This document shows positions 11,138 to 58,644 of a stretch of 64,000 nt of DNA, piece after piece; within the stretch, counting starts at the first letter, position 1, and every line of letters begins with the position of its first letter. A model generated the notes under the pieces. That model ran no database searches and was not told where the DNA came from. It saw only the letters and a list, made by a program, of their open reading frames with translations. The stretch is taken from assembly GCA_025336685.1 (NCBI GenBank), contig GCA_025336685.1_4717.1; one strand, 5' to 3'. Source of the stretch: Escherichia coli. Lineage in GTDB: Bacteria > Pseudomonadota > Gammaproteobacteria > Enterobacterales > Enterobacteriaceae. The position numbers and the translations under genes were made by a program.

Positions 11138-11268
11138 CGTTTTCACCTCGTCGTAAAAGTAAATAGAGTTTTGTCGAGACGCCCTAATTACTTACAACGT
11201 AGGTTCTCCTGGCTTCAGAGAATTCTTAAAATCCGTTAGTTTTGATAGATAGGATAAGACGGCATAAA

Positions 11269-11289
11269 AGCCTCCCATTACGGGAGGCT
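11269..11289 (-). terminator. hairpin AGCCTCCC/GGGAGGCT followed on the minus strand by UUUUAUGCCG
   Basis: 8-bp stem, then U-rich tract. Confidence 0.5.
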
Positions 11290-19288: not shown

Positions 19289-19314
19289 AGCAGGTACCGG
19301 TAACGCGGCATAAA

Positions 19315-19332
19315 CCCTCCCCGAAGGGAGGG
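19315..19332 (-). terminator. hairpin CCCTCCC-CGAA-GGGAGGG (UUCG loop on RNA) followed by UUUAUGCCG
   Basis: Perfect 7-bp stem, tetraloop, U-rich tail. Confidence 0.55.
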
Positions 19333-19342
19333 CGGTTAATGA

Positions 19343-19900
19343 TTACTCCATCCATACTTCTTCGTCGTAATGATTTTCTATCGCATTACGCCAAAAACGT
19401 ACGGTGTCCAAACTAATCGGTGCGTAAAAGTGTTGGTCAACGCCTACATTAAGTCCGTTGGCCTTCGCTAACATACAGCGATGAATGTGCCCGAATAGAT
19501 TGAAGTAGCCTGGGTTTCTTTCGCTGGGCTTATGGCATAGCCAGTAGGATTCGTCATTGCTAATCGGCAATACCAGCGGATGTTCATAAACAGCAGCAAA
19601 CCCCATACCGAGCAGTTTATCACGCCACGCGTCGAAGCTTAATCCTGTCGCTTTGTATGCGTCTTCGTCCCAATTCCCCATTACCAATTGAACCTGGATA
19701 TCAGAACGAATGGCTTCCACGAACTCGAACTTACCCCAATCACCTAAATGCCACAACACACTGTTCTTTGGAAGATTGTTGATGGCTTTCAGCATATGCT
19801 GGTTCATATCGGCGACGCTTGCGAACGGACGGCGTGAATACGTCCATGTACGCTCGCTATCAAAATGGGTATCCGATATAAAGAAGATGGGTGAGGTCAT
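19343..19900 (-). CDS. calcineurin-like metallophosphoesterase
   Basis: Motifs ISDTHF, GDWG, GNWD, GHIH. Confidence 0.7.
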   Translation of the reverse strand: MTSPIFFISDTHFDSERTWTYSRRPFASVADMNQHMLKAINNLPKNSVLWHLGDWGKFEFVEAIRSDIQVQLVMGNWDEDAYKATGLSFDAWRDKLLGMGFAAVYEHPLVLPISNDESYWLCHKPSERNPGYFNLFGHIHRCMLAKANGLNVGVDQHFYAPISLDTVRFWRNAIENHYDEEVWME

Positions 19901-20379
19901 CGATTTAATTGCTCCAGAAATGCACGACCCGATTTACTTGCTTTTAAATGTTGTTCTGCGGAAGTAAGCAGAAGATCGGTTGGTGTGAATGCAGCGCTAC
20001 CTTTCCACGCCGTTTTCAGTTTACCCTTTTCGATACTGAACTGAATCAGTTGTTGGGTACCGAAGTTAAGCGTGTTCGTTGCGGCGCTAAATACACCACC
20101 CATCATGCTGTAACCAAAGACTTTCACATTTTCCGTGTAGAAGTCATTGTCGATCAATTTGTTCTGGAGCTCGAGTTGGTCGGACGGCAGTAATCCCCCA
20201 TCAAAGACACTTAAAATACCAGCCAGGCGATACATACTCACCTTCCCTGCAACGCCCACCACGTAATTGCCATACACGGTTTCTTCCAGTTTAGCAACAA
20301 CGGTGCGATCGTCGGAGGTTTTCATCGAAACCTCAATACCATCACCAACTTCTGTCAACGTTAAATCAACGATACTCAT
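19897..20379 (-). CDS. hypothetical protein
   Basis: 160-aa ORF, ATGA overlap with upstream gene. Confidence 0.45.
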   Translation of the reverse strand: MSIVDLTLTEVGDGIEVSMKTSDDRTVVAKLEETVYGNYVVGVAGKVSMYRLAGILSVFDGGLLPSDQLELQNKLIDNDFYTENVKVFGYSMMGGVFSAATNTLNFGTQQLIQFSIEKGKLKTAWKGSAAFTPTDLLLTSAEQHLKASKSGRAFLEQLNR

Positions 20380-21088: not shown

Positions 21089-21136
21089 CGCACGTACCTC
21101 TTTGAATCGGTAGATAGATTAATAGATATTGATTAC

Positions 21137-21161
21137 TCACGTAAGTAATATAGCCGTGAAA
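21137..21161 (-). promoter_or_regulatory. conserved promoter-like motif (TATATTAC core), copy 1
   Basis: Plus strand TCACGTAAGTAATATAGCCGTGAAA, 49-73 nt upstream of the HD gene start. Confidence 0.5.
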
Positions 21162-21304
21162 GGATTTGTGTTGGTCCGTTTCGATGCCCATCGTATTTTA
21201 TGGATTGTCGAATGACGTCATTTTAAGGGACATCCCCGACCTCCTCCCCACACCTTTCCAGGGGAGGAGTTTTATCATACTTTTCTATTAATTCGAGCGC
21301 GATT

Positions 21305-23386
21305 ATGTTGGATAGAATCAATCGTTTAATGAACCGAATGACGGTTAAAAATCAGAGTAACAATACCGTGCATATCGGGGGTATCGATGCGTGGCGTCTT
21401 TCAGATGACATTCAGCGAATATGGGGTACCTCCCGATTTATGAAGCACATGTTTCGTAATTTTTCTTCTAGTGGGCTCAGTCTCCACAACTTTTACCTCC
21501 CCGATTTCGTTTATATTCTCGAAACGATCATCGAGGCAAAGAATACCCGTAGCAACAAACGCATGCTGAAACACCTTATCGAGATACTACTACAGGAAAC
21601 ATGGTTGCAAAATACCACCATCGAGCAGCCCGCAATCCTCGATAAAGCACGCATGAACAAAATGCTAACGCTCTCTCTGTTCGATTATCAAGATGAGTTC
21701 ATCGACATCTATAACCGTAACGTACCTAAATACCGACTGAAAGGATACGTGTGTGCGATGGGTGCAGGTGCCGGTAAAACGATCACAGCGCTGGCATTAA
21801 GCGCCGCAATGAACGTCGATGTATTTGTGGTCTGCTGTCCTAAGAACACCATGCGTTCAGCATGGCAATCCGATGTAAACAAAGCCATCGTTGATCCTGC
21901 AACAGAAACCGCGTTCTGGTCAGACACAATGCCACCATCACAGCTGCAGAAAAGCGATAAGTACTATTTTCTACATTACGAATCGATGGGCTTATTAAAC
22001 GATGTGATGATCAAGCATAAACGCACAGCGAAGCGCGTTCTTATTGTTGTTGACGAAAGCCATAACTTCAACGACAAGAACAGCCAACGTTCCCAGCGAC
22101 TGGTTGATCTTGTACAGACAATGCGTCAGACCATGAATGCGGATGTGCACGTCTTGTTTATGTCAGGTACCCCTGTTAAACAGATGGGTTCTGAGATGAT
22201 CCCATGTTTAGGTTGTATCGATCCGATGTTCCAAGGACAGGTGGTCGATAGCTTCAAAGCAATTTACGGTTTAACCAGCAGCCGTGCTAACGATATCCTC
22301 AGACATCGTCTTGGGTTCATGATGCATGTCGTACCTAAAGAGGCTTACCGTAAAACCCGTCCGGAAGTTCAGGATGTTTACGTGAAGCTTCCTAATGGTA
22401 GCGATTATACCATCTCGAGCATTCGTGACGACATGGCGATATTTGTACGCGATCGGGCGAAGTATTACAAGGATAACTGGGGACATTACCGAAAGATTTT
22501 TGATGATGCCTTGGACTACTATCGTAAGACTATTCGTACCGACGGAGAACGTAAAGAGCTATCTCGATACGAATCGATTGTTGCGCGTTTCCAGAAAGGT
22601 TACGATCCCGTCAGAGACAAAGACGATGCGATGTTCTGCAGCGCGTTTGAAAAACGTTCCATCATGCCAGTTCTTCCTTCTGATTTAAGGGTTGCTTTCA
22701 AAGACGCCAAGAGCGTCATCAAGTACGTTGGGTTGAAAATTCAGGGTGAAGCATTGGCCCGTGTTCTGGGCGCAGCGCGCATTCGGTGTCATGTCGACAT
22801 GGTGGAATACATCGACTTCGAAGGGTACATCAATAACGCCGAAGCCAAAGTGTTGATCTTCACGTCGTACGTTCAGGTGGTTGAACGCGTCGATAACATG
22901 CTTCGTGATGCGGGCTTCTTACCGGAACCCATTTACGGGAAGACCAACAAAAACATCAACCAAATACTTGCCCGTCTACGCGACGATCCTGACAGCGGTC
23001 CCGCTATCGCAACCTTTGATAGCTTAGCTGAAGGGGTTCCGATGCTGATGTGTAATGTGGGTCTCTTCTTGAACAACCCGTGGCGTTCATCCGATGAAAT
23101 CCAAGCCATCAGCCGTCTCGACCGTGTAGGGCAAACGCAACCTGTTCGGATTTATCGTTTCATGTTAGATACGGGAAGCGAGGGTAACGTTTCTACCCGT
23201 AGTCACGAAATCATGGAGTTAAGTCGACAGCTTGTTGAAGAAATCACGGGCGTCAAATATGTAGTGAACAAGCAAGATGATGTTAACTTGCAAGAAACGT
23301 TGGCGATGGAAGGATACGATCAATACGTTACCGTAAACGCCACGGAATACGATATTAAACCACGACCTGCGTTCTTGGAATGGTAA
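21305..23386 (+). CDS. SF2 (SNF2/DEAH-like) helicase
   Basis: Walker A MGAGAGKT, DEAH-like VVDESHNF. Confidence 0.7.
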   Translation: MLDRINRLMNRMTVKNQSNNTVHIGGIDAWRLSDDIQRIWGTSRFMKHMFRNFSSSGLSLHNFYLPDFVYILETIIEAKNTRSNKRMLKHLIEILLQETWLQNTTIEQPAILDKARMNKMLTLSLFDYQDEFIDIYNRNVPKYRLKGYVCAMGAGAGKTITALALSAAMNVDVFVVCCPKNTMRSAWQSDVNKAIVDPATETAFWSDTMPPSQLQKSDKYYFLHYESMGLLNDVMIKHKRTAKRVLIVVDESHNFNDKNSQRSQRLVDLVQTMRQTMNADVHVLFMSGTPVKQMGSEMIPCLGCIDPMFQGQVVDSFKAIYGLTSSRANDILRHRLGFMMHVVPKEAYRKTRPEVQDVYVKLPNGSDYTISSIRDDMAIFVRDRAKYYKDNWGHYRKIFDDALDYYRKTIRTDGERKELSRYESIVARFQKGYDPVRDKDDAMFCSAFEKRSIMPVLPSDLRVAFKDAKSVIKYVGLKIQGEALARVLGAARIRCHVDMVEYIDFEGYINNAEAKVLIFTSYVQVVERVDNMLRDAGFLPEPIYGKTNKNINQILARLRDDPDSGPAIATFDSLAEGVPMLMCNVGLFLNNPWRSSDEIQAISRLDRVGQTQPVRIYRFMLDTGSEGNVSTRSHEIMELSRQLVEEITGVKYVVNKQDDVNLQETLAMEGYDQYVTVNATEYDIKPRPAFLEW

Positions 23387-23392
23387 TTAAGA

Positions 23393-23418
23393 AGCTCTGT
23401 CTGATGTCAGACAGAGCT
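23393..23418 (+). terminator. hairpin AGCTCTGTCT-GATGTC-AGACAGAGCT followed by TTTATGCCG
   Basis: 10-bp perfect stem 6 nt after the helicase stop. Confidence 0.6.
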
Positions 23419-23485
23419 TTATGCCGTGTTTGTTACAAAATCGTATGGCGTATATGCGTTGTACTTATTAAATAGGACAGAATAC

Positions 23486-24937
23486 ATGAAACTCAAACAA
23501 AGCTGGAAAGACGAACTTCTTGCGTTAGTAAATAGCAAAAACAGTTTACAGCTGACATTAGCCGACGTAAAATTTGAACTAACTGAACCGGTAAGCGAAG
23601 TGCCCGGAACGGTTACTGTTACGATCAAACCGAACGATGATAGCCGTTACTTTAACGAGCAGTCTCTGACCTACATCCGTCGAGACATCGCTAAAAACTT
23701 CACCGGGATCCCGTTACGGGTTATCGTTAAAAATGATACTGCCGTAAAGGATATCATCAACACGATCGCTGAACGTTACGGATTGGTATTTGACACAACC
23801 GTCGACTTCCTCGAATCCGAGCTGAATAAACAAATTACGTTCGCAGACACCGGTATTAAAGACATCACGGTTCCGGTTGCAAACACGTCTTATGTTTGGG
23901 CTGGTAATCTTCAGTTCAACATTGCTAACGATACGTTAAGCTTGATTACGATCATCAAGCAAACCGATCTTACGAATCTGGTTTATCTGGATGGTGTTGA
24001 AGCTGATACAACGGGATCGTTACTATTAGCAACGACCTCGGTTATCGACGAAAACGGAAATACCGAAACAACTGAAGGTGTCCTTGACGCAGCGCACTTC
24101 CAGAATGTCCTGAACGTCATGGTTCGTTATGGTGATATTACCAACGAACAAATGCAACAAGCAATGCAGACAATTAACCAAAGCGAAGACGTTCGTAGAG
24201 TAGAGGTGAGATCATACGGTGACGCCGAATTACTGGTAACCACCAAGAAAGATTGGGCTATCGGCAGCCTTAAGGGTGCTATGGTTGTTGGACGCGCTTC
24301 ACCTAAACCGATCCAATACGTTCTTAAAACAAAAGGCGGCAGCATTATATTATCATTAGATGGTTGGACAAATGTTTCCATCGATTGGGGTGATGGGAAT
24401 AAGACGACGGAGGACTCAGTCGATAATGAATATCGGCACACCTATGCGGACACTACAGAACGTACGATCGTCGCTACGGGTACCCCTACCAACGTTGAAG
24501 ATACAGAGGTACAGCAAAGCTTCACCGGTGGTAACATCACTGAAATCGTTGACTGGAACAACGGATTACCTAAGGCCCCATCATTACCTGCGGCGAACAG
24601 TTTAACTAAGGTTCCTAATTATATCCCGGCATACTGGACATCGTTAGAAGGTATGTTTACACGATGCAGCGTTATTAACGACGTGAACATCACCAAATGG
24701 AACACCCGCAACATTACTTCAATGAAGGACCTCTTCTACGGTTGCGCTGCGTTCAACCAACCGATCGGTTCGTGGGATGTTTCGTCTGTTAAGAATATCG
24801 ACAATATGTTGTCTGGATGCTTCGCGTTCAATCAGGATCTGAGTGGTTGGACATTCCCGGCAGGCACTTCACACATCAACTACGACGGCATGACCGCCGT
24901 GTGGAGTACTGAACACAAACCACACTTCGCTGAGTAA
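23486..24937 (+). CDS. protein with C-terminal DUF285/BspA-like repeats
   Basis: Track start is further upstream; ATG 23486 (MKLKQSW) has AGGA RBS; C-terminus has repeats FNQPIGSWDVSSVKNIDNML / FNQDLSGW. Confidence 0.55.
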   Translation: MKLKQSWKDELLALVNSKNSLQLTLADVKFELTEPVSEVPGTVTVTIKPNDDSRYFNEQSLTYIRRDIAKNFTGIPLRVIVKNDTAVKDIINTIAERYGLVFDTTVDFLESELNKQITFADTGIKDITVPVANTSYVWAGNLQFNIANDTLSLITIIKQTDLTNLVYLDGVEADTTGSLLLATTSVIDENGNTETTEGVLDAAHFQNVLNVMVRYGDITNEQMQQAMQTINQSEDVRRVEVRSYGDAELLVTTKKDWAIGSLKGAMVVGRASPKPIQYVLKTKGGSIILSLDGWTNVSIDWGDGNKTTEDSVDNEYRHTYADTTERTIVATGTPTNVEDTEVQQSFTGGNITEIVDWNNGLPKAPSLPAANSLTKVPNYIPAYWTSLEGMFTRCSVINDVNITKWNTRNITSMKDLFYGCAAFNQPIGSWDVSSVKNIDNMLSGCFAFNQDLSGWTFPAGTSHINYDGMTAVWSTEHKPHFAE

Positions 24938-24956
24938 AAAAAAATAGTTAGCATAT

Positions 24957-24989
24957 CTTCCTCCCTACCCATAACGGGCGGGGAGGAAG
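24957..24989. terminator. hairpin CTTCCTCCC ... GGGAGGAAG between convergent genes
   Basis: 9-bp stem, followed by GTTTATG on the plus strand. Confidence 0.5.
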
Positions 24990-25006
24990 GTTTATGTGGC
25001 TATGAC

Positions 25007-25345
25007 TTAGAACCAGAGTTCTTTCATGAGGTAGGCTTCCATATCGTAGATAAGCCACTCGTCAGGAATTTCTAAAGGATCGTCTTCGGTTAAGGTCAGC
25101 ATGTGCAGGGCGAACGCACGCTTAATATCGTTCAGCAGTTTCTCGTCGTCGTAACCTTCGGGTAGTTTACGGTCTACCAGTTGGGTTTGTTTATAGACAG
25201 CACAGAACGCTTCAGGGCTATGTTTGTCCATCGGAAATTGTTCGGCGGCCTGGACCATCGTCAACGTCCAGCTTACAACATTGTAACGCTCACCGTTAAT
25301 TTCACTGAACTGATCATCGATTAAACAGATTTGTTGTACGTTCAT
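25007..25345 (-). CDS. hypothetical protein
   Basis: 112-aa ORF. Confidence 0.45.
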   Translation of the reverse strand: MNVQQICLIDDQFSEINGERYNVVSWTLTMVQAAEQFPMDKHSPEAFCAVYKQTQLVDRKLPEGYDDEKLLNDIKRAFALHMLTLTEDDPLEIPDEWLIYDMEAYLMKELWF

Positions 25346-26303: not shown

Positions 26304-27878
26304 TTACAATTCAAAATCTTCATCGATAACGCGCTGGGTAAGCACTTTGTCGCTGAAGAACTCCACCTTGCGCTGATGGTATTTACGATGCGCTTCGATA
26401 GAAGTACATACCAGATACCAGAAGGTTGGCGTCATTCCTTCAAACTTCCCTTTCAGCTGACGCAGTCGCCCCAACACCTGAATGTTACCGGTTCGTGACC
26501 CCATCGCTAACGTCATGAACGCCATCACCAAGTCAGGAAGGTCGATGCCCGTACCTGCCGATTTCACCGTCGTAACGCTAATATCGTTATCCAACAAGAC
26601 CATGAAATCTTCTTCAGCCGTATAAGGACCGATCTCTAACTCAGGAATACGTTCACTGAGATAATGCGACAACGACTTACACATATCAACGGTTGCACAA
26701 TACACCAGCATCTTCATACCTTCCTGATACTGGTTCATGAAACCTTTGATGATAACCGTATAGATAAAGTTGAAATACGCGAGTTTGAGCTGCTTGTTCT
26801 TCATGATAGACTGTTCGAATATCGTGTGAGAATAAGAACCCCCAAACCCTTTGTATCTGACTTTATCTGTACTACGTAGTCGATACGTCACGGCATTTAC
26901 CGCAATGTATTTCTTGTATTCGCCTTTCGCATAACGGGCTTCTTTCGGATACATCAAATACAACATCCGCTCGATGAACGGATCATCGGACACCGCCGTT
27001 GCTGACAGATAGATGATTTCCGGAATACTAGCGTAACACTTGACCTTAAACAAGAAATGCAATGCTTCATGGCACTCGTCATGAATCAGAAGGCCTATGC
27101 CGGTCTTTTCCCAAAACTCAGCGGGATGAAAGGCATACGGCGCAACGCAGTTATTCTTCTCGTAGTCCGCAATATAACGTTGGAACATGTTCAAGGAGAA
27201 CAATGCGATTTTGAAGTCGAGTTCACCTTGTTCAACCAAGGTTTGAAACTCCAACATACTGTAACGAGGAATGTCGGGATGCGGTGGATCCTCCTTAGCG
27301 TTCCCGCGTATCTCGATAACGTCCCCTGGTTCCATCCCGAAGAAGTTCAGCAGTGAGCTTCGCCAACCTGGCATGTATCTCGGCGACAGAATGATACCCG
27401 TCCGTACACCGCGTCGGAAGGTAATCTCCTGCGACATGGCCGTTTTTCCCGACCCTGTTTGAGCGGTGTTTAGACTCATTCTGAAGGGGGTATCCTTACC
27501 CCCATTCATGTACTCCAACCATTCTTGCTGATCTTCACGCCATGGGAACTTCCATTTCTTTACGAACTCCACTTCTTTACCTGGTGCCGGATCGTGATAA
27601 ACGATTTCCAACCACTCTTTTCGTATCCCTCGGGAAAAGATAAAATCCAAAAACGATTTCAACTGTTCGCGGAGTAAGTATACCTCGCTATAATCGCTTC
27701 TCGCTGCGGCATACGTGTTTATGGTATCGGTAACCATTCTCCGTGTACGAGGGTCGCGCCGTTTCCTCAGATGCAAACAACGGTCTCGAAGGTAATGGCC
27801 GATAAGATGGGCAAATCGAAGTCCGTATCCGCTCAGCTTCATGCCATGCGAGAAGACGTCGATACGAGCTAACTTCAT
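26304..27878 (-). CDS. SF2 DExH-box helicase
   Basis: Walker A TGSGKT, motif II LIHDECHE; ATGA overlap with upstream stop. Confidence 0.7.
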   Translation of the reverse strand: MKLARIDVFSHGMKLSGYGLRFAHLIGHYLRDRCLHLRKRRDPRTRRMVTDTINTYAAARSDYSEVYLLREQLKSFLDFIFSRGIRKEWLEIVYHDPAPGKEVEFVKKWKFPWREDQQEWLEYMNGGKDTPFRMSLNTAQTGSGKTAMSQEITFRRGVRTGIILSPRYMPGWRSSLLNFFGMEPGDVIEIRGNAKEDPPHPDIPRYSMLEFQTLVEQGELDFKIALFSLNMFQRYIADYEKNNCVAPYAFHPAEFWEKTGIGLLIHDECHEALHFLFKVKCYASIPEIIYLSATAVSDDPFIERMLYLMYPKEARYAKGEYKKYIAVNAVTYRLRSTDKVRYKGFGGSYSHTIFEQSIMKNKQLKLAYFNFIYTVIIKGFMNQYQEGMKMLVYCATVDMCKSLSHYLSERIPELEIGPYTAEEDFMVLLDNDISVTTVKSAGTGIDLPDLVMAFMTLAMGSRTGNIQVLGRLRQLKGKFEGMTPTFWYLVCTSIEAHRKYHQRKVEFFSDKVLTQRVIDEDFEL

Positions 27879-31416: not shown

Positions 31417-31495
31417 ACCAGGGATCCTCTTTTTAAGTCTTCACATTCTAGTGTTAAGCAGTTAAAATAAACCGTCCCTTTAATCAGCATAAACA

Positions 31496-31525
31496 TCCTC
31501 CTCCCACCACATGGGTAGGAGGAGG
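31496..31525 (-). terminator. hairpin CCTCCTCC ... GGAGGAGG followed by AUGUUUAUGCUG
   Basis: 8-bp stem; a GTAATATA word sits between the upstream stop and the hairpin. Confidence 0.4.
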
Positions 31526-31536
31526 CGTAATATACA

Positions 31537-34517: not shown

Positions 34518-34546
34518 CCCTCCCACAGCGTAAAGCGTAGGGAGGG
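34518..34546 (+). terminator. hairpin CCCTCCC ... GGGAGGG followed by CATTTATGCCG
   Basis: 7-bp stem with 15-nt loop, 6 nt after the stop. Confidence 0.5.
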
Positions 34547-34577
34547 CATTTATGCCGTCGTTCGTTGGCTTAGCACA

Positions 34578-45284: not shown

Positions 45285-45325
45285 GATTGTCCTCGTTTTC
45301 AATTTAAGATTACATGCAGCATAAA

Positions 45326-45350
45326 CCCTCCCCGCATAAGGCAGGGAGGG
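45326..45350 (-). terminator. hairpin CCCTCCC ... GGGAGGG followed by UUUAUGCUG
   Basis: 7-bp stem. Confidence 0.45.
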
Positions 45351-46257: not shown

Positions 46258-47669
46258 CTTCAGTTTAATTTGGTCGAACGTATTCCAATTTCAATCCATG
46301 CCAATCACCGCCTTTACTAATAGCGGTACTTATCGTAGTCGGATGCACTTTATGTTCTTCAGCAAGGGCGAATCTATCAGGATAGACTTTATGTGTACCA
46401 TCCTCAAACACCACCTTTACTGGGAACCTTTGTAATCCACCAGTTTTTGGTCTAGGCTCTTTAGGAATATATTTACATTCGTTCACATCGCCAGGATAAT
46501 TCCTTGTCCACCATGCTTTCCAACCGTTTCTGGAAAACATCTTATCTCCATGACATAAGCTATGACTTAATGTCGCATAGCTCACTCCCACCATTGTTGC
46601 CGCCATTACGGTACTTTCCATGTGATACTTGTCTCCATCGGGCGATATTAAAACCAACCCGCCGTAAATAACATACGACTTACCGGCATCTTCGGATGTG
46701 AAACCGACAAATTCCATTCCGTGGGTAGCCGCATCGTAATATTTCATCAACGGCCATTGTCGTGTAGTACGGAACCATTTTGAAATCTGGGTGTGTGGGA
46801 TACCGTAACACTTAGCCGCATCGCGCATACTGTAATGTTCGGTTATCTCGCCAGTTCTCAAATCCTTTATCCATACTGTTTTAGCTTTCCAGTTCAAGCC
46901 CGTACGATAGGCATGGTACGTATTTTGGGATTGACTCGTCCATTCAAGATTATCCAAGCGGTTGTTATCTTTAACTCCGTCAAGATGGTTACCTACTAAC
47001 ATTGATCCCTCAGGCAGCATAGGTTTTTCACGAAAGGTGGATAAAACAACATGATGAGCTGCTATATCTCTACCTTCATGTCTGACCCTTACATATCCTA
47101 ATACGTTAGTTTTTCCTACTTCCTCTCCAGTATAGGCATCTATAATGACACCCTCCACAGAAGCGGCAAGTCCGGGATAATCTTTACAATGGTAAAATCC
47201 TGGGAATTTTGTCTCTCTAAGTTTCATCTTCTCTCCGCTATCGGCCAACAGAGAGAAAACGTTCCTCGGAGGCCGACGTTTTCAAATTAAACTACGTTAT
47301 CGACTATATCTTCATCCTCATTGCGAGGAGTCTCCCGTTTGGGTCTGTGTTTAACAGAGCCTACTCTACTCGACATCGCGTCTTTCGATAGTCTGTGAGC
47401 ACACATCTTAACGAACATTCGTGGACTCCTAAACAGGTGAACATTCTTGTTAAGATGCTTCGCTGCGGGTTATTCCCGTCCTACCTCTTTTACCATACCC
47501 AGTTCATTACGCTGGCCCTCATCTATGTCGCCACGATGAGTTGGTGTGTAGTCCGATTACAGAAACTTCCCGTCAATTAGAGAGTTTTAACTATGTTCCT
47601 GTTACCAGAAACCCGACTCCGATGATATCAATAAATCAACGTAAGTTATTGATTTAATTGAAGAAACTG
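46258..47669 (-). other. group I intron (1412 nt) in the RNAP beta-prime-like gene
   Basis: 5' splice after U (GCCGACUU|CAG); candidate IGS GAGUCGG pairs with exon CCGACUU including a U.G wobble; P AAUUGACGGGAAG, Q AAUAACCCGCAGC, R GCUCACAGACUAUCGAAAG, S GAAGAUAUAGUCGA all in the first ~400 nt; 3' end ...CUGAAG with terminal G. Confidence 0.8.
46265..47227 (-). CDS. HNH homing endonuclease encoded in the 3' part of the intron
   Basis: HHVVLSTFREKPMLPEGSMLVGNHLDGVKDNNRLDNLEW (HNH core); track start 47248 is TTG, ATG 47227 has GGAGAG RBS. Confidence 0.8.
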   Translation of the reverse strand: MKLRETKFPGFYHCKDYPGLAASVEGVIIDAYTGEEVGKTNVLGYVRVRHEGRDIAAHHVVLSTFREKPMLPEGSMLVGNHLDGVKDNNRLDNLEWTSQSQNTYHAYRTGLNWKAKTVWIKDLRTGEITEHYSMRDAAKCYGIPHTQISKWFRTTRQWPLMKYYDAATHGMEFVGFTSEDAGKSYVIYGGLVLISPDGDKYHMESTVMAATMVGVSYATLSHSLCHGDKMFSRNGWKAWWTRNYPGDVNECKYIPKEPRPKTGGLQRFPVKVVFEDGTHKVYPDRFALAEEHKVHPTTISTAISKGGDWHGLKLEYVRPN

Positions 47670-54482: not shown

Positions 54483-54556
54483 AAATCCTCCAAAAGTTAT
54501 TTAGTCTGTCTACATCATCTCGTATATCTGTTAAAAAAGAAGGACGGCATAAAAAG

Positions 54557-54584
54557 AACCGATCCAGCCGAAGCCAGATCGGTT
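54557..54584 (-). terminator. hairpin AACCGATC ... GATCGGTT followed on the minus strand by CUUUUUAUGCCG
   Basis: 8-bp stem, U-rich tail. Confidence 0.55.
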
Positions 54585-54638
54585 TAAAGGATAATAACTG
54601 ACTGAAAGATATCGATGATGTTCGTGAAACAAGATCTT

Positions 54639-58390: not shown

Positions 58391-58412
58391 GCTTTCTCCT
58401 ACACGGCATAAA

Positions 58413-58434
58413 AGCCTGCCCCGAAGGACAGGCT
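58413..58434 (-). terminator. hairpin AGCCUGUCC-UUCG-GGGCAGGCU followed by UUUUAUGCCG
   Basis: 9-bp stem (one G.U), UUCG loop, U-tract. Confidence 0.55.
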
Positions 58435-58443
58435 CGATAGAAC

Positions 58444-58644
58444 TTAATAACCATCCAATTTCAATGAAGGATGGTTGACGATATGTGCGTGTTTTGCTGG
58501 GTCGTATGGTTGATATGGAAAATAACCATGCCACTGACGACCTTGGCATTTCGTACATACGAACTGACCATCGCTTCGCTGATTCTCGTAAGCGAGTTCA
58601 GTACTATCAACATGACCGCAACGTTCGCAGATAAACAGCGACAT
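58444..58644 (-). CDS. small zinc-ribbon protein
   Basis: CERCGH ... CTKCQG, 66 aa. Confidence 0.4.
   Translation of the reverse strand: MSLFICERCGHVDSTELAYENQRSDGQFVCTKCQGRQWHGYFPYQPYDPAKHAHIVNHPSLKLDGY

Follow-up and report, generated by a model that had tools for sequence, protein, structure and literature searches.

Two neighbouring plus-strand genes in a 64,000-nucleotide stretch of DNA from an Escherichia coli assembly (GCA_025336685.1, contig GCA_025336685.1_4717.1; the whole stretch is called the window below) are likely to form a small virion-protein unit that has been kept in Goslar-like phages. The unit would consist of a head-packaged helicase, a modular fibre subunit and a set of terminator-like hairpins. 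Both genes encode virion proteins, because the orthologs of the helicase (gp160 in Goslar, gp203 in phiKZ) and of the second protein (gp161 in Goslar), which we call the fibre protein, have been found in virions. Both genes are also already known: they are annotated in the reference Goslar genome, and earlier work had assigned gp161 to the DUF7941 family of virion fibres. What is new from this analysis is a hypervariable C-terminal module in the fibre protein and a family of hairpins followed by TTTATGCYG, and these are modest additions.

The window is approximately 94% identical, by nucleotide comparison, to Escherichia phage Goslar (vB_EcoM_Goslar), a chimallivirus and nucleus-forming jumbo phage with a genome of 237 kb, and its source is assigned on this similarity to the Goslar-like nucleus-forming jumbo phages (Chimalliviridae). 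The two-gene region aligns with Goslar 142848-146646 at 93.8% nucleotide identity, a span that covers gp160 (annotated as a "putative helicase"), gp161 and two annotated terminators; the Goslar GenBank record marks hairpins 1 and 2 as putative terminators. An earlier, sequence-only reading of this DNA had described two plus-strand genes in a minus-strand region, and this description holds: both open reading frames (ORFs) are present, and the long ORFs around them in the 64-kb window are nearly all on the minus strand. The longest ORF of the second gene begins with a GTG at 23426, and the ATG at 23486 is the start that matches the Goslar annotation and the N-termini of all homologs. Rfam and tRNA scans gave no match in the two-gene region. 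A sigma-70 promoter scan gave 11 sites, with 11.9 expected, which is uninformative, as would be expected of phages that use their own polymerases. The coordinates of the features are collected in Table 1.

Table 1. Genes, fibre-protein domains and hairpins of the two-gene unit, with the hairpin+TTTATGCYG sites of the window. Positions are those of the window; hairpin stability is given as folding energy and as a z-score against shuffled sequence.
Feature	Position	Strand	Description
Helicase ORF	21305..23386	+	693 aa
Fibre-protein ORF	23486..24937	+	483 aa plus stop
DUF7941 module	23486..24127	+	aa 1-214; ~150-aa globular N-terminal domain and low-confidence linker
Beta-sandwich	24197..24565	+	aa ~238-360; strands in both AF2 models
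DUF285/PARCEL repeat solenoid	24536..24934	+	aa ~351-483; three clean and two degenerate repeats, C-terminal cap
Hairpin 1	21241-21269, then TTTTAT (to 21275)	+	9-bp stem CTCCTCCCC/GGGGAGGAG, 11-nt loop; -18.1 kcal/mol, z -4.0
Hairpin 2	23391-23420, into TTTATGCCG (to 23426)	+	13-bp stem, 4-nt loop; -21.6 kcal/mol, z -6.1
Hairpin 3	24957-24989	both	CTTCCTCCC...GGGAGGAAG, nested inner stem; -28 kcal/mol on plus (z -4.7), -26.1 on minus
Hairpin+TTTATGCYG sites	11260-11287, 19306-19331, 23391-23426, 31485-31530, 34519-34557, 45317-45349, 54545-54590, 58404-58450		

The virion assignment of the fibre protein is carried by its likeness to gp161, with which it shares 91.7% amino-acid identity over the full length and of which it is judged to be the ortholog. 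A preprint of April 2026 reports the cryo-electron microscopy structure and the mass-spectrometry proteome of the Goslar virion. In that work gp161 is one of ten DUF7941 virion proteins and carries a leucine-rich repeat (LRR) domain; it was detected in purified virions by 27 peptides, with 53.8% coverage and approximately 111 copies per virion (bioRxiv 10.64898/2026.04.21.720040). A look into virion proteomes, which the sequence-only reading had suggested, therefore comes out positive for the ortholog. The same study describes gp86, gp92 and gp161 as the three proteins that carry carbohydrate-binding, glycoside hydrolase or LRR domains behind DUF7941, reports that the purified paralog gp22 forms filaments, and gives AlphaFold 3 predictions for pairs of DUF7941 proteins. 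Its authors propose that DUF7941 proteins join head to tail into a "fibre cloud" that is anchored at the peripheral baseplate and aids host recognition (bioRxiv 10.64898/2026.04.21.720040).

Four parts follow one another in the fibre protein: the DUF7941 module at the N-terminus, a helical linker, a beta-sandwich and, at the C-terminus, a DUF285/PARCEL solenoid. It is the DUF7941 domain that defines the identity of the protein, and this domain had been overlooked in the sequence-only reading. The Pfam DUF7941 model (PF25613) matches aa 4-214 with 85.7 bits, compared with a gathering score of 27 (E 4.7e-24, profile positions 5-222 of 276), and the N-terminal part also matches phrog_1037 and phrog_2935, both of which are labelled "virion structural protein". 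An AlphaFold 2 (AF2) model of the whole protein has a predicted local distance difference test (pLDDT) score of 81. It consists of a globular N-terminal domain (pLDDT ~50-80), a low-confidence linker at aa 150-175, a helical segment, the beta-sandwich and the solenoid. When the model was compared with the PDB using Foldseek, the sole significant match was 9xqd_0 (E 2.2e-5, target-normalised TM-score 0.58, 149 of 150 columns, root-mean-square deviation 4.4), and it fell on the N-terminal domain. In the PDB, 9xqd_0 is a chain of 150 residues from the outer peripheral baseplate of phiKZ. This chain has been identified as the N-terminal domain of gp127 (bioRxiv 10.64898/2026.04.21.720040). The DUF7941 module is predicted to be the conserved anchor and oligomerisation part of the fibre protein.

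The C-terminal half ends in repeats, for which the sequence-only reading had proposed a DUF285/BspA-like class. A profile search bears this out, with the Pfam DUF285 model (PF03382) matching aa 385-456 at 78.4 bits (cut-off 25, E 4.8e-22); the TIGR02167 PARCEL repeat model scores 32.4 bits (cut-off 30). "BspA" proper, from Tannerella, is a different LRR family. Three clean 25-residue repeats end at W405, W430 and W455 (INDVNITKW, FNQPIGSW and FNQDLSGW), and two degenerate units upstream of them end at W357 and W384. Modelled separately, the C-terminal half reaches a pLDDT of 88, with the strands of the beta-sandwich above 90. The beta-sandwich carries a W-G-D-G...H-x-Y signature, in which G302, D303 and G304 do not vary and W301, H318 and Y320 hardly do. 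Fold matches of this half in BFVD are phage "26-residue repeat" and "BspA family" proteins and one PKD-domain protein. A PKD-like label for the beta-sandwich is suggested by the signature and that one BFVD match, and Pfam gave no PKD match for it. In a Foldseek search of the PDB nothing matched the C-terminal half with an E-value better than 0.13, and a profile search of the PDB sequences was likewise empty. The N-terminus of the fibre protein (MKLKQSWKDELL; MKLKQSWKDELLALVNSK) has no hydrophobic signal peptide or lipobox, as judged by eye without a predictor, and no sorting domain was matched in a Pfam search.

We propose that the DUF7941 module attaches the fibre protein to other DUF7941 proteins or to the peripheral baseplate, and that this docking would put the fibre protein in the flexible DUF7941 filaments proposed for Goslar. 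The low-confidence linker at aa 150-175 is as expected for a linker that docks on the N-terminal domain of a neighbour. The variable C-terminal half, made of the beta-sandwich and the solenoid, would face outward and may offer a binding surface for host envelope structures. We infer that the fibre protein joins filaments and binds the host.

The distribution of sequence variation along the fibre gene is uneven. When orthologs of 483-485 aa are compared with the protein of the window, the N-terminal 185 residues are 88-97% identical, whereas identity falls to as little as 25-31% in the linker, 36-47% in the beta-sandwich, which is the most variable segment among strains, and 49-52% in the repeat part. 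At the nucleotide level the window and L004, a locus from one of the Goslar-like contigs described further below, are ~90% identical in both flanks and 53-65% identical within 24100-24990. In the comparison with L006 only the bin at 24400-24700 drops, to 55%, while the repeat region stays at 87%. Because the drop is so confined, the pattern of divergence is mosaic and points to recombination between modules, and the C-terminal half is a local mosaic hotspot on a conserved anchor. A constant anchor with a shuffled distal part is typical of the receptor-binding proteins of tailed phages. The variation, by analogy, favours a role in host recognition without proving it. Just behind the stop codon of the fibre gene, an A-run at 24938-24946 differs in length among five genomes, probably through homopolymer slippage.

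The first gene of the unit had been called a helicase, and this assignment stands. The protein has Pfam matches to ResIII, SNF2-rel_dom and Helicase_C and a PHROGs match to phrog_62 (E 2.9e-88). Its superfamily 2 (SF2)/SNF2 motifs are intact, with motif I (GAGAGKT) at 153, motif II (DESH) at 250, motif III (SGTP) at 287 and motif VI (QAISRLDRVGQ) at 600. It shares 98.4% amino-acid identity with Goslar gp160, and 32.5% identity over 94% of its length with PHIKZ203, which is gp203 of phiKZ (E 1e-113); homologs occur at one copy per genome in 205 phage records. We regard it on these similarities as the ortholog of Goslar gp160 and phiKZ gp203, an SNF2-type helicase of the virion head. Goslar gp160 was detected in purified virions by 15 peptides, at approximately 10.6 copies per virion (bioRxiv 10.64898/2026.04.21.720040). 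In phiKZ, gp203 is reported to be proteolytically processed, to be packaged in the head and to co-pellet with DNA; it is non-essential and tolerates transposon insertions. S/A/G-x-E sites are present in the helicase of the window. The counterpart in Erwinia phage RAY, gp131, localises with capsids, and has been proposed to organise the packaged DNA or to help the injected polymerase in early transcription. By extension, the helicase would be packaged into the chimallivirus head in few copies (~10 per Goslar virion) and would probably enter the cell along with the DNA. Two roles have been suggested for it, namely to organise the packaged DNA or to assist early transcription by the virion RNA polymerase.

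A second, non-virion SF2 helicase lies 3 kb away at 26304..27878 on the minus strand, where it adjoins an RNA polymerase subunit gene. It has 524 aa in the window, Goslar and L006 and 753 aa in L004 (8823-11084) and L005 (8806-11067). An intein, a domain gain or a fused ORF are candidates for this size gap of ~229 aa. Near position 27100 the nucleotide identity falls to 78-79% in comparisons with L001, L005 and L006.

The order of genes around the unit, HD-hydrolase, helicase, gp161, a 112-aa protein and a 297-aa protein, recurs in four more Goslar-like genomes that were taken from public assemblies. The orthologous helicases of Erwinia phage Ea35-70 and phiKZ likewise head a short unit on the strand opposite to their neighbours, and in phiKZ gp203, gp202 and gp201 are all annotated as structural proteins. 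Since both phages share this helicase-led opposite-strand unit, the strand switch is an old feature of the family, in which only the gene behind the helicase varies. This raises a further possibility, which we put forward tentatively: that the slot behind the virion helicase is a conserved "cargo slot" which chimalliviruses fill with differing virion proteins, and that in the Goslar lineage it holds a rapidly recombining host-recognition tip, made of the beta-sandwich and PARCEL module on a constant DUF7941 anchor, which is a main determinant of the Enterobacteriaceae strains that each phage finds and infects. If this were true, swapping 24100-24937 would retarget a nucleus-forming jumbo phage. 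The therapeutic appeal of nucleus-forming jumbo phages lies in the protection of their genomes from the defences of the host. The C-terminal half of the fibre gene is in any case a candidate starting point for work to understand or engineer the host range of the Goslar group, which is of modest practical value. As a discovery the unit carries little weight, as both genes were annotated and the family placement had already been made.

Three strong hairpins had been noted around the two genes, and all three fold far better than shuffled sequence. Hairpin 1 lies in a divergent intergenic region, 29 nucleotides before the helicase start codon, and its stem is invariant in five Goslar-like genomes. 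Hairpin 2 lies between the helicase stop and the fibre gene and shows two compensatory double changes across five related genomes. Hairpin 3 lies between the convergent stops of the fibre gene and of a minus-strand gene (25007..25345) and is kept in five genomes. Hairpins 1 and 3 share the stem CCTCCC/GGGAGG, which has nine occurrences in the window with none expected.

The motif TTTATGCYG also occurs nine times in the window, with 0.92 occurrences expected, and eight of the nine directly follow a strong GC-rich hairpin. All eight members of this hairpin+TTTATGCYG family, hairpin 2 among them, are intergenic and just 3' of a gene on the same strand; two are in convergent contexts. The element at 34519-34557 (plus strand), for example, follows a small plus-strand gene that corresponds to Goslar gp172 and faces a convergent gene. 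Conserved terminator motifs have been reported for phiKZ and 201phi2-1. The hairpin with TTTATGCYG is probably the phage's own terminator signature. Hairpin 2 is probably an intrinsic terminator of the helicase transcript, and hairpin 3 probably a bidirectional terminator. We infer, in short, that the hairpins terminate transcription, with those behind each gene acting as intrinsic-type terminators of the hairpin+TTTATGCYG class. Hairpin 1, as a terminator-like element in the leader, may insulate the unit or may attenuate or time the expression of the helicase. This is our best guess by analogy with 201phi2-1, for which terminators right downstream of the major capsid gene promoters have been proposed to time expression.

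Ahead of hairpin 1, the sequence between the divergent genes (21130-21240) is highly conserved in all five genomes. It holds a near-palindrome, TTACTCACGTAAGTAA, and a TTTATGG motif ~40 nucleotides before hairpin 1; both are candidates for promoters or operators of the two divergent units. A small ORF that runs over hairpin 1 (35 aa from 21184) was considered and rejected, because the relatives carry the loop in flipped form, so that the peptide would not be kept. The hairpin 1 loop (21250-21260) reads ACACCTTTCCA in the window but AGGAAAGGTGT in Goslar, L004, L005 and L006, which is its reverse complement bar one base. Similarly, hairpin 3 in L005 (7470-7510) is the exact reverse complement of that in the window (33 of 33 bases), and L001 8050-8080 belongs to the same observation. 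The flips of terminator hairpins between strains suggest small inversions via recombination between the stem arms.

Several points weigh against the picture of a head-packaged helicase and a filament-borne, host-binding fibre protein between terminators. The filament model comes from a preprint and rests on the microscopy of gp22 and on AlphaFold predictions. Virion mass spectrometry cannot locate the fibre protein on the particle, and the C-terminal half gives no hint of its ligand, as no relative of it has a solved structure. Under laboratory conditions phiKZ can do without its ortholog of the helicase. All three hairpins are followed by short T-runs (TTT(T)AT), so that canonical termination is not assured, and a generic scan for terminators picked up a part of hairpin 1 but missed hairpins 2 and 3. 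Finally, hairpin 1 has the plus orientation and the look of a terminator, but there is no plus-strand gene upstream of it to terminate.

What the C-terminal half does could also be explained by an environmental adhesin, which sticks virions to mucus, gut or environmental glycans and raises encounter rates without choosing the host. The module does resemble the repeats of bacterial surface adhesins (PARCEL/DUF285), its nearest non-phage relatives are surface proteins, two of which (P0115 and P0116) have type IX secretion system (T9SS) sorting domains (PF18962), and Goslar and its relatives come from dung or enteric isolates. Approximately 100 copies per virion on flexible filaments would suit a low-affinity, multivalent sticking. 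We nevertheless consider this explanation unlikely. Where phages are otherwise 90% identical, a strong, mosaic diversification of the C-terminal half alone usually marks an arms race over a host receptor, and the paralog described below adjoins a tail-fibre gene. Far less probable still is a foreign cassette (moron), that is, the capture of both genes, or at least of the fibre gene, from a bacterium (as a surface protein of the Mycoplasma or Firmicutes type) for a non-virion role such as modification of the host surface. A strand switch bounded by hairpins and a repeat class first described in bacterial surface proteins would fit such a capture, and the sequence-only reading had spoken of an island. 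In the sense of an insertion, this reading was rejected on composition, synteny and virion data. In GC content (0.42-0.50) the unit matches its flanks, the synteny is kept across Goslar-like genomes that differ by up to ~20% in this region, and phiKZ and Ea35-70 have the same arrangement. Moreover, the N-terminal half of the fibre protein is a chimallivirus-specific virion module, the Goslar ortholog is in purified virions, DUF285 is common in jumbo phages, and the N-terminus has neither signal peptide nor lipobox to the eye.

For the hairpins, a possible but rather doubtful alternative is that hairpin+TTTATG is a terminator-promoter couple, in which TATG is the core of a late promoter where the non-virion RNA polymerase restarts; the late promoter of the fibre gene would then lie at 23420-23423. 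According to the literature, the late promoters of phiKZ need 5'-TATG-3', with the G as +1. The enrichment of TTTATGCYG and its position behind hairpins are in keeping with this idea, most of the elements are 18-72 nucleotides upstream of the next start codon on the same strand, and gp161, as a virion protein, is expected to be late. That said, TATG alone is insufficient even in phiKZ (literature), and no transcript-start data for Goslar were found. The element is also found where no gene on the same strand follows, at 34519-34557 (plus strand) and at hairpin 3 between its convergent stops, and because of these convergent contexts we rank the promoter reading below the terminator reading. The reading that we prefer remains that of two virion-protein genes, each followed by a probable terminator, with a fibre protein whose outer half would meet the host.

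The repeat class itself had been called unusual in a phage of this type, and this does not hold. The DUF285 part of the fibre protein is matched in 110 phage records (tblastn), mostly of jumbo phages, and some phage genomes have up to 34-40 places that match it. Aeromonas phage D3, Edwardsiella phage pEt-SU and Serratia phage Sureiya match both the repeat and the gp203-type helicase. No paralog of the fibre protein was found in the 64-kb window (tblastn); paralogs lie elsewhere in the genome. Goslar-like genomes can have a second protein with DUF7941 and DUF285, of 584 aa (e.g. P0096), which is 46-48% identical to the fibre protein, and one contig holds both this paralog and a gp161-type gene. 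A cluster at L003 8001-13348 (GCA_961210045.1, CAUIQD010000007.1) groups the gene of the 584-aa paralog with a DUF7941 gene of 175 aa and with a tail-fibre gene of 967 aa, the product of which has Phage_tail_fib, Phage_fiber_2 and Peptidase_S74 domains. We rejected the idea that the 584-aa form is Goslar gp92, as the closest match in Goslar is gp161. Since Goslar has no match to the 584-aa protein closer than gp161, the DUF7941 fusions of the tail-fibre cluster differ between strains.

Other loci of the window and of its relatives deserve a brief mention. A 160-aa protein without a Pfam match (19897-20379, minus strand) is the ortholog of Goslar gp158, which at ~926 copies per virion is among the most abundant unmodelled virion proteins of Goslar (bioRxiv 10.64898/2026.04.21.720040). 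A group I intron lies at 47281-47660 on the minus strand (Rfam RF00028, 50.3 bits, at the gathering score), and the ORF behind it (46265-47248, minus strand) has an HNH_3 endonuclease domain. Goslar has an annotated intron at the matching site. The stretch 45300-49100 matches Goslar over no more than 72% of its length, with the alignment broken into two pieces, and so the endonuclease cargo differs from that of Goslar; the RefSeq feature names under this match include RNA polymerase beta subunit and nuclear shell protein. Near-complete contigs of Goslar-like phages (235-248 kb) are found in public isolate assemblies labelled Salmonella enterica, Shigella flexneri, Shigella sonnei, E. coli and Enterobacter hormaechei (here proteins P0002, P0005, P0021, P0028, P0052 and P0056, and loci L003-L006 and L010). 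Their presence there implies that lytic Goslar-like jumbo phages often travel with cultured isolates, either in a carrier state or as contamination.

Among known systems, the closest is Goslar itself. The fibre protein shares with gp161 its place behind the helicase, the hairpins and the DUF7941 and DUF285 layout, and differs by ~8% amino-acid divergence and by the flipped loop of hairpin 1, with no evident functional difference. The helicase shares its SNF2-type motifs with Goslar gp160, phiKZ gp203 and RAY gp131, proteins that are packaged in virions, and it heads a short opposite-strand unit as in phiKZ, where structural genes follow, and in Ea35-70. However, the genes behind the helicase are unrelated, as phiKZ gp202 and gp201 and Ea357_129 have no DUF7941 or DUF285 match, and in some relatives the helicase gene is split into two pieces, whereas that of the window is intact.

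The N-terminal DUF7941 module (PF25613) is shared with phiKZ gp126 and gp127 and with Goslar gp22 and gp23, and the modelled domain superposes on the 9xqd chain. In these four proteins DUF7941 is the only domain, and they are the abundant builders of the filaments, at 580-2140 copies per Goslar virion, while the fibre protein has an extra module of 270 residues, made of the beta-sandwich and the PARCEL repeats, and is ~5-20 times less abundant than the gp22/gp23 type. The 584-aa paralog has the same DUF7941 and DUF285 layout but four more PARCEL repeats, and it adjoins the 175-aa DUF7941 gene and the 967-aa tail-fibre gene rather than a helicase. Finally, the ~25-residue FNQxIxxW repeat is that of bacterial DUF285/PARCEL surface proteins, such as the lipoproteins of Mycoplasma, the "26-residue repeat" proteins of Listeria and the T9SS proteins of Bacteroidota, and the WGDG...HxY signature of the beta-sandwich is kept in the bacterial homologs that were aligned. 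The fibre protein differs from these bacterial members in having no secretion signal or lipobox (by eye) and no sorting domain, in being fused to a phage virion anchor, and in carrying three to five repeats, compared with the tens that are found in many of the bacterial proteins.

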